From assembly GCF_000027125.1 (NCBI RefSeq), contig NC_017626.1: a stretch of DNA of 64,000 nt; one strand, 5' to 3'. Both the position numbers and the translations under genes were made by a program. The notes beneath the pieces were generated by a model. It made no database searches. It was not told where the DNA came from and worked only from the letters and a program-made list of their open reading frames with translations. Position 1 is the first letter of the stretch. The number at the start of each line of letters is the position of its first letter. Of this stretch, positions 1,396 to 55,154 are shown piece after piece. Source of the DNA: Escherichia coli 042 (GTDB taxonomy: Bacteria; Pseudomonadota; Gammaproteobacteria; Enterobacterales; Enterobacteriaceae).

Positions 1396-1864
1396 TGTCG
1401 GATGCGTCGTGTGGCGCATCCGACACCGTGCGCCGATGCCTGATGCGACGCTGACGCGTCTTATCATGCCTACAGGCCTGAACCGTAGGTCGGATAAGGC
1501 GCTCGCGCCGCATCCGACACCGTGCGCCGATGCCTGATGCGACGCTGACGCGTCTTATCATGCCTACAGGCCTGAACCGTAGGTCGGATAAGGCGCTCGC
1601 GCCGCATCCGACACCGTGCGCCGATGCCTGATGCGACGCTGGCGCGTCTTATCATGCCTACAGGTCTGAACCGTAGGTCGGATAAGGCGCTCGCGCCGCA
1701 TCCGACACCGTGCGCAGATGCCTGATACGACGCTGGCGCGTCTTATCATGCCTACAGGCCTGAACCGTAGGTCGGATAAGGCGCTCGCGCCGCATCCGAC
1801 ACCGTGCGCAGATGCCTGATGCGACGCTGACGCGTCTTATCATGCCCACAGGCCTGAACCGTGG
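1396..1864. repeat. Tandem array of about 5 copies of a 94-bp REP/BIME palindromic unit
   Basis: gcatccgac recurs at 1416, 1510, 1604, 1698 and 1792 (period 94); gcctgatgcgacgc...gcgtcttatcatgcctacag recurs with the same period; a few SNPs between units. Confidence 0.9.
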
Positions 1865-1917
1865 ATAATTTTTCCCCCACCTTTTTGCACTCATTCATAT
1901 AAAAAATATATTTCCCC

Positions 1918-1933
1918 ACGAAAACGATTGCTT
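1918..1933 (+). promoter_or_regulatory. Candidate PurR operator in the codBA promoter
   Basis: acgaaaacgattgctt resembles the PurR box consensus, about 70 bp upstream of the codB GTG start. Confidence 0.45.
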
Positions 1934-1999
1934 TTTATCTTCAGATGAATAGAATGCGGCGGATTTTTTGGGTTTCAAACAGCAAAAAGGGGGAATTTC

Positions 2000-3259
2000 G
2001 TGTCGCAAGATAACAACTTTAGCCAGGGGCCAGTCCCGCAGTCGGCGCGGAAAGGGGTATTGGCATTGACGTTCGTCATGCTGGGATTAACCTTCTTTTC
2101 CGCCAGTATGTGGACCGGCGGCACTCTCGGAACCGGTCTTAGCTATCATGATTTCTTCCTCGCAGTCCTCATCGGTAATCTTCTCCTCGGTATTTACACT
2201 TCATTTCTTGGTTACATTGGCGCAAAAACCGGCCTGACCACCCATCTTCTTGCTCGCTTCTCGTTTGGTGTTAAAGGCTCATGGCTGCCTTCACTGCTGC
2301 TGGGGGGTACCCAGGTTGGCTGGTTTGGCGTTGGCGTGGCGATGTTTGCCATTCCGGTGGGTAAGGCAACCGGGCTGGATATTAATTTGCTGATTGCCGT
2401 TTCCGGTTTACTGATGACCGTCACCGTCTTCTTTGGCATTTCGGCGCTGACGGTTCTTTCGGTGATTGCGGTTCCGGCTATCGCCTGTCTTGGCGGTTAT
2501 TCCGTGTGGCTGGCCGTTAACGGCATGGGCGGCCTGGACGCATTAAAAGCGGTCGTTCCTGCACAACCGCTAGATTTCAATGTCGCGCTGGCGCTGGTTG
2601 TGGGGTCATTTATCAGCGCGGGTACGCTCACCGCTGACTTTGTCCGGTTTGGTCGCAATGCCAAACTGGCGGTGCTGGTGGCGATGGTGGCCTTTTTCCT
2701 TGGCAACTCGTTGATGTTTATTTTCGGTGCAGCGGGAGCGGCGGCACTGGGCATGGCAGATATCTCTGATGTGATGATTGCTCAGGGCCTGCTGCTACCC
2801 GCGATTGTGGTGCTGGGGCTGAATATCTGGACCACCAACGATAACGCGCTCTATGCGTCGGGCTTAGGTTTCGCCAACATTACCGGTATGTCGAGCAAAA
2901 CCCTTTCGGTGATTAACGGTATTATCGGTACGGTCTGCGCACTATGGCTGTATAACAATTTTGTCGGCTGGCTGACCTTCCTTTCGGCAGCTATTCCTCC
3001 GGTAGGGGGCGTGATCATCGCCGACTATCTGATGAACCGTCGCCGCTATGAGCACTTTGCGACCACGCGTATGATGAGTGTCAATTGGGTGGCGATTCTG
3101 GCGGTCGCCTTGGGGATTGCCGCAGGCCACTGGTTACCGGGAATTGTTCCGGTCAACGCGGTATTAGGTGGCGCGCTGAGCTATCTGATCCTTAACCCGA
3201 TTTTGAATCGTAAAACGACAGCAGCAATGACGCATGTGGAGGCTAACAGTGTCGAATAA
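2000..3259 (+). CDS. codB: Cytosine permease
   Basis: 419-aa multi-pass membrane protein, GTG start, immediately upstream of and overlapping codA. Confidence 0.93.
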
Positions 3260-4532: not shown

Positions 4533-4570
4533 TCGGCTGGGCTGTGTGTTGACAAAGCGAGCGTAGTTTA

Positions 4571-4651
4571 TGCCGGATGCGGCGTGAACGCCTTATCCGG
4601 CCTACGTAGAGCACTGAACTCGTAGGCCTGATAAGCGTAGCGCATCAGGCA
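4571..4651. repeat. REP palindromic elements (pair)
   Basis: gccggatgcggcgtgaacgccttatccggcctacg and cgtaggcctgataagcgtagcgcatcaggc between codA and cynR. Confidence 0.85.
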
Positions 4652-4664
4652 ATTGTGTCAGTGG

Positions 4665-5673: not shown

Positions 5674-6333
5674 GTGAAAGAGATTATTGATGGATTCCTT
5701 AAATTCCAGCGCGAGGCATTTCCGAAGCGGGAAGCCTTGTTTAAACAGCTGGCGACACAGCAAAGCCCGCGCACCCTTTTTATCTCCTGCTCCGACAGCC
5801 GTCTGGTCCCTGAGCTGGTGACGCAACGTGAACCTGGCGATCTGTTCGTTATTCGCAACGCGGGCAATATCGTCCCTTCCTACGGGCCAGAACCCGGTGG
5901 CGTTTCTGCTTCGGTGGAGTACGCCGTCGCTGCGCTTCGGGTATCTGACATTGTGATTTGCGGTCATTCCAACTGTGGCGCAATGACCGCTATTGCCAGC
6001 TGCCAGTGCATGGACCATATGCCTGCCGTCTCTCACTGGCTGCGTTATGCCGATTCTGCCCGCGTCGTTAATGAGGCGCGCCCGCATCGTGATTTACCGT
6101 CAAAAGCTGCGGCGATGGTGCGTGAAAACGTGATTGCTCAGTTGGCTAATCTGCAAACGCATCCATCGGTGCGCCTGGCGCTCGAAGAGGGGCGGATCGC
6201 CCTGCACGGCTGGGTCTACGACATTGAAAGCGGCAGCATCGCAGCTTTTGACGGCGCAACCCGCCAGTTTGTGCCACTGGCCGCTAATCCTCGCGTTTGT
6301 GCCATACCGCTACGCCAACCGACCGCAGCGTAA
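5674..6333 (+). CDS. cynT: Carbonic anhydrase
   Basis: 219-aa beta-class carbonic anhydrase (CSDSR, HSNCG motifs). Confidence 0.92.
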
Positions 6334-8720: not shown

Positions 8721-8745
8721 TGCGATCATTCCGTTATGATATGTT

Positions 8746-8777
8746 GGTCGGATAAGGCGCTCGCGCCGCATCCGACA
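8746..8777. repeat. REP element between lacY and lacA
   Basis: ggtcggataaggcgctcgcgccgcatccgaca. Confidence 0.85.
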
Positions 8778-21774: not shown

Positions 21775-21940
21775 CATCCCAGCACGACTGCCGGATGCGG
21801 CGTGAACGCCTTATCCGGCCTACGGATGGCGCGAGAATTTGTAGGCCAGATAAGACGCGTTAGCGTCGCATCAGGCATCTGAGCACGACTGCCGGATGCG
21901 GCGTAAACGTCTTGTTCGGCCTACATTTCGCCTGTAGGCA
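21775..21940. repeat. BIME (several REP copies) between mhpE and mhpT
   Basis: Repeated gccggatgcggcgtgaacgccttatccggcctac type palindromes. Confidence 0.85.
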
Positions 21941-23880: not shown

Positions 23881-23988
23881 GTCGTGCGCAGATGCCTGAT
23901 GCGACGCTATGCGCGTCTTATCATGCCTACGGCCTGCGGGCGAAATGTAGGCGGATAAGGCGTTCACGCCGCATCCGGCAGTCGTGCA
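23881..23988. repeat. REP/BIME elements
   Basis: gcctgatgcgacgc...gcgtcttatcatgcctac and ggcggataaggcgttcacgccgcatccggc. Confidence 0.85.
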
Positions 23989-35297: not shown

Positions 35298-38216
<2,919 letters not shown>

Positions 38217-43588: not shown

Positions 43589-43633
43589 CAGAGGATTGGG
43601 CGTTCTGGGGGCTGACAAAGTGCTCGTTGTTTT

Positions 43634-43737
43634 TGCCGGATGCGGCGCGAACGCCTTACCCTGCCTACAAAATCATGCAAAATCAGTATATTGCAATTAT
43701 CTGGTAGGCCTGATAAGCAAAGCGCATCAGGCAATCT
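43634..43737. repeat. REP elements (pair)
   Basis: gccggatgcggcgcgaacgccttaccctgcctac ... gtaggcctgataagcaaagcgcatcaggc. Confidence 0.85.
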
Positions 43738-52910: not shown

Positions 52911-53015
52911 CACAACGCCCATGGAGCAAGTTACAGCGTAAAACGCATAATATTGCTGCGCTAAAAATTATTGCCCGCCGTAGCGAATAATTATATGCCT
53001 GGTGTGGCTTCGTAC

Positions 53016-53048
53016 GCCGGATAAGACGCGGCAGGCGTCGCATCCGGC
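53016..53048. repeat. REP element
   Basis: gccggataagacgcggcaggcgtcgcatccggc. Confidence 0.8.
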
Positions 53049-53067
53049 ATTAAAGGTAAATCAGCAA

Positions 53068-55012: not shown

Positions 55013-55037
55013 AAAACGTAGGCAATTGGCTCATCAT

Positions 55038-55128
55038 GCCTGATGCGACGCTTGCCGCGTCTTATCAGGCCTGCAAAATGTGCCAGAACCGCGTAGGGCG
55101 GATAAGGCGTTCACGCCGCATCCGGCAA
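55038..55128. repeat. REP elements (pair)
   Basis: gcctgatgcgacgcttgccgcgtcttatcaggcctgc ... gtagggcggataaggcgttcacgccgcatccggca. Confidence 0.85.
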
Positions 55129-55154
55129 TAAGCAACGTGCTCCGTGACTGCAAT

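Follow-up and report, generated by a model that had tools for sequence, protein, structure and literature searches.

A strain-variable 94-bp tandem repeat between prpE and codB of Escherichia coli 042, probably a BIME-2 array

The intergenic region between prpE and codB of Escherichia coli 042 raises the question of what kind of element a run of regularly spaced 94-bp repeats represents, whether the number of repeats in the assembly is genuine and whether that number matters to the cell. The locus lies within the window, by which is meant the whole stretch of 64,000 nucleotides of contig NC_017626.1 that was analysed. An earlier note, made from the letters alone, had described about five REP/BIME units between the two genes with an exact period and a few single-nucleotide differences between copies, and this description holds. 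Tandem Repeats Finder reported a repeat of period 94 at positions 1415-1862 (4.8 copies; 97% matches; score 847) in which no indels occur, and only six variable positions were found among the five 94-bp units when these were aligned by hand. A repeat search of the window also returned four copies of 188 nt at an exact spacing of 94 nt and with 89-100% identity. The 94-bp repeat is too long and too exact to have arisen by chance, which is ruled out as its source by a very wide margin.

The flanking genes could be named from the annotation of RefSeq genomes that share the flanks of the window with 100% identity. The 3' part of prpE (propionate--CoA ligase) occupies positions 1-1390 of the + strand, its open reading frame ending at 1390 with the stop codon TAA at 1388-1390, and codB (cytosine permease) runs from a GTG start at 2000 to 3259 on the same strand, preceded by an AT-rich region at 1865-1999 (+). 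The array itself has a G+C content of 63.5% compared to 51.9% for the window. The first structure in the gap is a perfect palindrome of 30 nt at 1396-1425 (TGTCGGATGCG, an 8-nt loop, tcgtgtgg, and CGCATCCGACA) that begins 5 nt past the prpE stop codon and can be described as a Y-like, degenerate REP, although its match to the reference REPs is weak (21-22/35). The right arm of this leader palindrome forms the head of the first 94-bp unit. The palindrome is kept in every strain examined, with a variable loop.

The tandem array proper extends from 1415 to 1862, with units starting at 1415, 1509, 1603, 1697 and 1791. Within each unit an inverted Y-type REP is joined by a 12-nt linker to a Z2-type REP, which is followed by an 11-nt spacer. 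The five Z2-type REPs, all on the + strand (1438-1473, 1532-1567, 1626-1661, 1720-1755 and 1814-1849), match the published Z2 sequence at 33-35 of 37 positions and read GCCTGATGCGACGCTG(A/G)CGCGTCTTATCATGCCTAC, the fifth of them terminating in CCCAC rather than CCTAC. The four inverted Y-type REPs, on the - strand (1485-1519, 1579-1613, 1673-1707 and 1767-1801), are identical to one another (GTAGGTCGGATAAGGCGCTCGCGCCGCATCCGACA) and match the published Y sequence at 30 of 35 positions; among the differences, C3 to T and G30 to A fall in the stem and compensate each other. The head-to-head linker, CCGTGCGC(C/A)GAT, lies at 1426-1437 and again from 1520, 1614, 1708 and 1802, and the tail-to-tail spacer, AGG(C/T)CTGAACC, at 1474-1484 and again from 1568, 1662, 1756 and 1850. 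In the haplotype of the window the right junction (1850-1864) consists of the last spacer followed by GTGG, a truncated GTAGG, such that the array ends in the truncated foot of a sixth Y REP. Position 1864 is the final base of the array, and the sequence common to all other strains begins after it. The limits of 1396 and 1864 that had been given for the feature therefore coincide with the first base of the palindrome and the last base of the array before shared sequence.

The REPs were typed by alignment to the Y, Z1 and Z2 references given in PMC11208160. The direct REPs gave raw scores of 29-33 against Z2 and only 13-18 against Z1 or Y, and the inverted REP scored 25 against Y and 11-17 against the other references. 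A REP was taken to be an extragenic, imperfect palindrome of 30-40 nt with a GTAG/CTAC foot. Nine elements of 35-36 nt are of this form, all of them between the prpE stop and the codB start, with GTAG or CTAC present in eight of the nine and CCAC in the last Z2. BIME-2 elements have been defined as combinations of Y and Z2 that occur in multiple tandem copies with a short linker, the copies being well conserved at a given locus and differing in number among strains (Ton-Hoang et al., 2012; PMC3333891). The prpE-codB repeat shares with them the opposed Y and Z2 REPs, the short linker (here 12 nt), the conserved tandem copies, the extragenic position and a copy number that varies between strains, and shows no essential difference from them. 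Particular to this locus are the tail-to-tail spacer of 11 nt, AGGCCTGAACC, a variant of Y in which one stem pair is compensated (GTCGG...CCGAC) and a variant of Z2 whose foot (ATCATGCC) contains a C.T mismatch. It is thus highly probable that the repeat is a BIME-2, that is, a non-coding tandem array in which inverted Y-type and direct Z2-type REP hairpins alternate, filling the gap that separates the prp operon from the codBA promoter. The general REP/BIME identity proposed earlier was right, and the matches of Y and Z2 to published references refine it to this class.

Two other classes of repeat were considered and rejected. The elements known as BIME-1 (RIP/RIB) are also made of opposed REPs, but there Y is paired with Z1 across a long L linker that contains an IHF site, in a single copy, whereas the prpE-codB array has Z2 as the partner, a 12-nt linker and tandem copies. 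No match to the IHF consensus WATCAANNNNTTR was found within the array, and the suggestion that such repeats might act here as IHF sites is not borne out, IHF binding being a property of the long L linker of BIME-1. A CRISPR array was rejected on the grounds that all parts of the 94-bp unit recur from copy to copy and no unique spacers are present. The RefSeq feature table for K-12, as served, holds no repeat_region feature at prpE-codB.

Several other repeats were noted in the window. Opposed Y and Z1 REP pairs resembling BIME-1 are present at 4566-4656, between the convergent genes codA and cynR, and at 43632-43735. A single Y REP (8743-8777) lies between lacA and lacY, a Z2 and Y pair (23891-23984) between yaiL and fghA, a single Z2 REP at 53011-53049 and a further Z2 and Y pair at 55036-55131, and none of these last four loci shows tandem amplification in this strain. 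A weak two-copy repeat of 27 bp was also seen at 36376-36431 (79% matches, score 68).

The earlier note had also drawn attention to a run of overlapping minus-strand open reading frames with repeated translations and had regarded them as spurious. Such frames are indeed present at 1470-1655, 1564-1749 and 1658-1894 and have near-identical translations. It could be argued that these, or short plus-strand frames, encode a genuine repeat protein or a family of small proteins, as they begin with ATG, reach 55-78 amino acids and repeat their translations, but successive frames overlap in different registers (94 mod 3 = 1), no array frame has a match in Pfam at E <= 1, the REP hairpins account for the whole of the sequence and the number of units ranges from one to about 12 among strains. 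Because 94 is not a multiple of three and no Pfam match was found, the frames are best regarded as spurious, and the protein-coding reading of the array is effectively refuted.

The copy number of the array was then compared across E. coli genomes, as a strain-variable number had been predicted for arrays of this kind. The length of the insert was measured with a query that contained the flanks only, in 60 genomes spread evenly over the 5,230 matches. One unit (an insert of about 96 bp) was present in 17 of these and two units (184-198 bp) in 27, among them K-12 and the group of CFT073, UTI89 and Nissle. Three units (about 284 bp) were found in six genomes, eight (753-760 bp) in four, including O157:H7, and nine (845 bp) in one. 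In three further genomes a distance of more than 1.2 kb separated the flanks. E. coli typically has one or two units at this locus, and the variation is by whole units. A second query of 50 nt, placed across the locus-specific spacer, found at least one junction between units in 3,803 of 5,426 complete E. coli genomes, with a maximum of 11 junctions (about 12 units); the position of the junction was judged only in the K-12 derivatives, where it lies at prpE-codB. About 30% of genomes gave no unit junction at all. The comparison as a whole gave one to about 12 units, in agreement with the prediction.

K-12 MG1655 has the same locus, leader palindrome and type of unit as the window, although with two units (a 194-bp insert) in place of five, and in both K-12 and O157 the right junction reads ...CCTACCCACTGTTTTTACACCG, unlike that of the window. 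An array is also found outside E. coli, since the sister species Escherichia whittamii (Sa2BVA5) carries three units at prpE-codB (5900-6180 of the retrieved locus), with flanks about 95% identical and a right junction of the K-12 type. No other species-representative genome matched the junction pattern of the array exactly. The presence of a three-unit array at the same position in E. whittamii shows that the array predates E. coli. The published MLVA primers ms06, ms07, ms09, ms11, ms21, ms23 and ms32 (PMC8215070) match neither the window nor the REP325 region, and a text search of the literature for prpE as a VNTR locus was without result. In one genome, that of strain AST205 (NZ_AP043614.1), the flanks-only query was covered to 41% in a span of 559 bp, which suggests a deletion of parts of prpE and/or codB.

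Among genomes that share the flanks of the window the number of units is higher. The array was 5, 7, 8, 9, 10 or 11 units long in the 48 records whose flanks (1,405 bp) agree with those of the window at 99.8% or more, nine being the commonest length. As length varies here while the flanks gain no substitutions, the array is resized faster than its flanks accumulate point substitutions. In genomes with 100% identical prpE-codB flanks, identity to the window falls to 99.0-99.3% over the following 24 kb (codA to yaiO; 2600-27000), which suggests a recombination mosaic. In the region homologous to 2600-27000 strain KK19-02 (NZ_CM144238.1) has a transposase gene of the IS1397 family, and the match there is about 1.4 kb longer than the query.

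The history of these arrays can be followed by giving one letter to each distinct 94-bp variant. The window then reads a a b c d. Three genomes with five units, EcPNK004, ESC818 and F374, read a b c g d. The longer maps are a b c c e f d in SW070912, a v c e f c g d in WP8-S18-ESBL-07, a b c c e f c g d in Ecol_316, a b c c e w f c g d in ECA64, a a b c e w f c x d in GF60 and a b c e f c e f c g d in CNREC_004-43. All differences between these maps amount to the in-register insertion, deletion or duplication of whole units. The map of the window is that of the ten-unit array of GF60 less the block e w f c x, the duplicated 'a' being common to both. Resizing of this kind may proceed by replication slippage or by unequal recombination between the 94-bp units; alternatively, the REP-associated transposase TnpA(REP) may cleave the DNA and transfer its strands, as Ton-Hoang et al. 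propose.

The same maps bear on whether the five units of the assembly are genuine or have been produced by the collapse, during assembly, of a longer array of, for example, nine or ten units. The exact array of the window occurs in no complete genome (the best full-length match is 99.4%), nine units is the commonest state among genomes with identical flanks, and 94-bp repeats with few differences are difficult for short reads. The window also corresponds to GF60 minus five internal units, and a collapse and a true deletion would look alike in this respect. The array is, however, exactly in register and contains no chimeric units, alleles of five to 11 units do exist and the opening 'a a b c' was found independently in GF60. 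Furthermore, EcPNK004, ESC818 and F374, which are independent complete genomes, have five-unit alleles within the same flank haplotype. With three other genomes at five units, a natural allele of this size is plausible, and we consider a collapsed assembly unlikely.

Not all variation at the locus is in the number of units. The flanks lay more than 1.2 kb apart in 314 of 5,233 records, one of which, that of strain MS14386 (NZ_LR130552.1), was inspected and found to contain in the prpE-codB intergenic region an element of the IS621 family (IS110-like) with a frameshifted transposase gene. The point of insertion falls between ATCAGGCCT and AC in the Z2 REP of the second unit. This site is the natural target of IS621, a bridge RNA recombinase, as reported by Durrant et al. 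The first four Z2 REPs of the window (1463-1473, 1557-1567, 1651-1661 and 1745-1755) read ATCATGCCTAC and have a single mismatch, at position 5, to the IS621 target ATCAGGCCTAC. The exact target is present in the terminal Z2 of arrays of the K-12 type and absent from the array of the window.

A BIME-2 array that follows a gene in the same orientation invites comparison with REP325, the array between yjdM and yjdN of K-12 from which the RNA family naRNA4 was described (Qian et al., 2015; PMC4550694). In REP325, identical U motifs connect six Y-l-Z2 repeats. Its transcription apparently comes from the upstream gene, and the resulting RNAs bind HU and cause DNA to condense, for which an RNA with two hairpins such as Y and Z2 is reported to be required (PMC4550694). 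In our hands the K-12 REP325 array has a period of 100 and 5.8 copies and is built in the same way as the array at prpE-codB, the 11-nt spacer of the latter being the counterpart of the 17-nt U motif. Both are multi-unit Y-linker-Z2 arrays co-oriented with the upstream gene, and the prpE-codB units are identical to the K-12 REP325 unit at 65-67 of 77 positions. The two differ in position, in period (100 against 94) and in spacer, and the naRNA properties have been shown only for the products of REP325 (PMC4550694).

The naRNA4 model of Rfam (RF02564) matches the + strand of the array at full length (model positions 1-77 of 77) four times, at 1488-1564, 1582-1658, 1676-1752 and 1770-1846, each match covering Y, linker and Z2 and reaching 70.2-72.4 bits, where the gathering score is 59.5. 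Matches to the minus strand (48-54 bits) and to the leader with the first Z2 (49.9 bits) fall below the threshold. The model also recognises a second locus of the window, the Y-Z2-Y REP cluster between mhpE and mhpT (21784-21924), in which a single, unrelated Y-Z2 unit on the minus strand (21844-21921) scores 65.4 bits. As this unrelated BIME-2 passes the threshold, RF02564 matches generic BIME-2 units, and since the family was itself built from a BIME-2 array a match identifies a BIME-2 unit and not a small RNA gene.

These observations may be set against the proposal that the array is a functional second naRNA locus, at which read-through from prpE would give two-hairpin RNAs of 77 nt that bridge cruciforms by means of HU and condense the nucleoid, with the number of units setting the dose. 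The four full-length matches of 70-72 bits on the strand of prpE speak for such a role, as do the REP325-like order of Y, linker, Z2 and spacer with its 65-67/77 identity, the requirement for two hairpins and the apparent transcription of REP325 from its upstream gene (PMC4550694). Against it stands the origin of the Rfam family, for any Y-linker-Z2 unit would be expected to match, as the unit at 21844-21921 does. The prpBCDE genes form a tightly regulated, propionate-induced sigma-54 operon, which is also at odds with the proposal, as are the single unit in many genomes and the fact that the sole promoter-like site inside the array is a weak match to the consensus. A second naRNA locus thus seems very unlikely. 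The REP325 junction was found in 2,254 genomes, with one to 14 per genome and a median of five, and variability in copy number is generic to BIME-2 arrays. When junctions are counted, O157:H7 has seven at prpE-codB and one at REP325, and K-12 derivatives have one and 5-7, respectively, a reciprocal pattern that is anecdotal.

What a BIME-2 array might do at this position was considered from its predicted folding. As RNA, the leader hairpin has a predicted energy of -25.1 kcal/mol (z = -5.2). For whole units, separate Y and Z2 hairpins are the minimum-energy structure in only one tested segment, with z from -1.7 to -2.8 on the + strand, and in the predicted minimum-energy fold of the unit Y is often paired with Z2 in one long hairpin. 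For 1582-1658 this long hairpin is predicted to be more stable on the minus strand (-44.2 kcal/mol, z = -4.5) than on the plus strand (-34.5 kcal/mol, z = -1.7). As no intrinsic terminator is predicted on the + strand in the prpE-codB gap, the 3' end of the prp operon has no strong structure other than the hairpins. A promoter-like site upstream of codB (1884-1912) is a consensus match only, and promoter-like matches in the gap were not above the expectation from shuffled sequence.

Upon transcription of prpBCDE the hairpins would become the 3' end of the mRNA, where they could bar 3'-5' exonucleases and partly block read-through into codBA. According to PMC6061677 and references in it, REPs at the ends of transcripts terminated by Rho are documented to form a barrier against 3'-5' exonucleases, and transcription attenuation by BIMEs is noted there as well (citing Espeli, 2001). 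A REP no more than 15 nt from a stop codon has been reported, in the account given by PMC12306157, to reduce translation of the upstream gene (Liang, 2015), and the leader hairpin, 5 nt past the prpE stop, would be near enough to act under this rule. As DNA, the Y REPs are probable gyrase sites, as gyrase cleavage is enriched in BIME-2 and mainly at Y REPs (PMC6379681). The supplements of that Topo-seq study have no entry for prpE/codB, and a literature search for REPs at prpE-codB returned no relevant paper and no expression, 3'-end, gyrase or HU data.

A tendency of nucleotide differences to avoid the stems was looked for and was not significant. The comparison used 15 distinct in-register units, drawn from 15 arrays, in which variation affects 5 of the 48 paired positions and 8 of the 46 unpaired ones (Fisher p = 0.38). 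The locus therefore gives no signal of selection on structure beyond its overall conservation. It can be argued that extra units do little, given that some 30% of genomes do well with one unit at most, and the copy number itself is probably close to neutral. It has to be weighed against this that the number may be functional, from one to about 12 units providing a strain-tunable leak into codBA or a dose of propionate-inducible, naRNA4-like HU-binding RNAs, a suggestion to which we would attach very little credence. The size of the prpE-codB array might also partly compensate for that of REP325, O157:H7 having eight units here and about two at REP325 and K-12 showing the reverse.

The array is an element of a known kind with a known kind of polymorphism and adds nothing to the biology of REPs and BIMEs as already known. 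Its value is in how the locus is read. For annotation, the open reading frames of the array are spurious, and matches to naRNA4 in Rfam mark generic BIME-2 units, not small RNA genes. For the quality control of assemblies, the locus is a 94-bp VNTR with five to 11 units in otherwise identical haplotypes that short reads may easily misreport. For typing, maps of unit variants act like minisatellite maps and resolve very close strains. In some strains, finally, the prpE-codB array is a natural landing site for IS621, the bridge recombinase.
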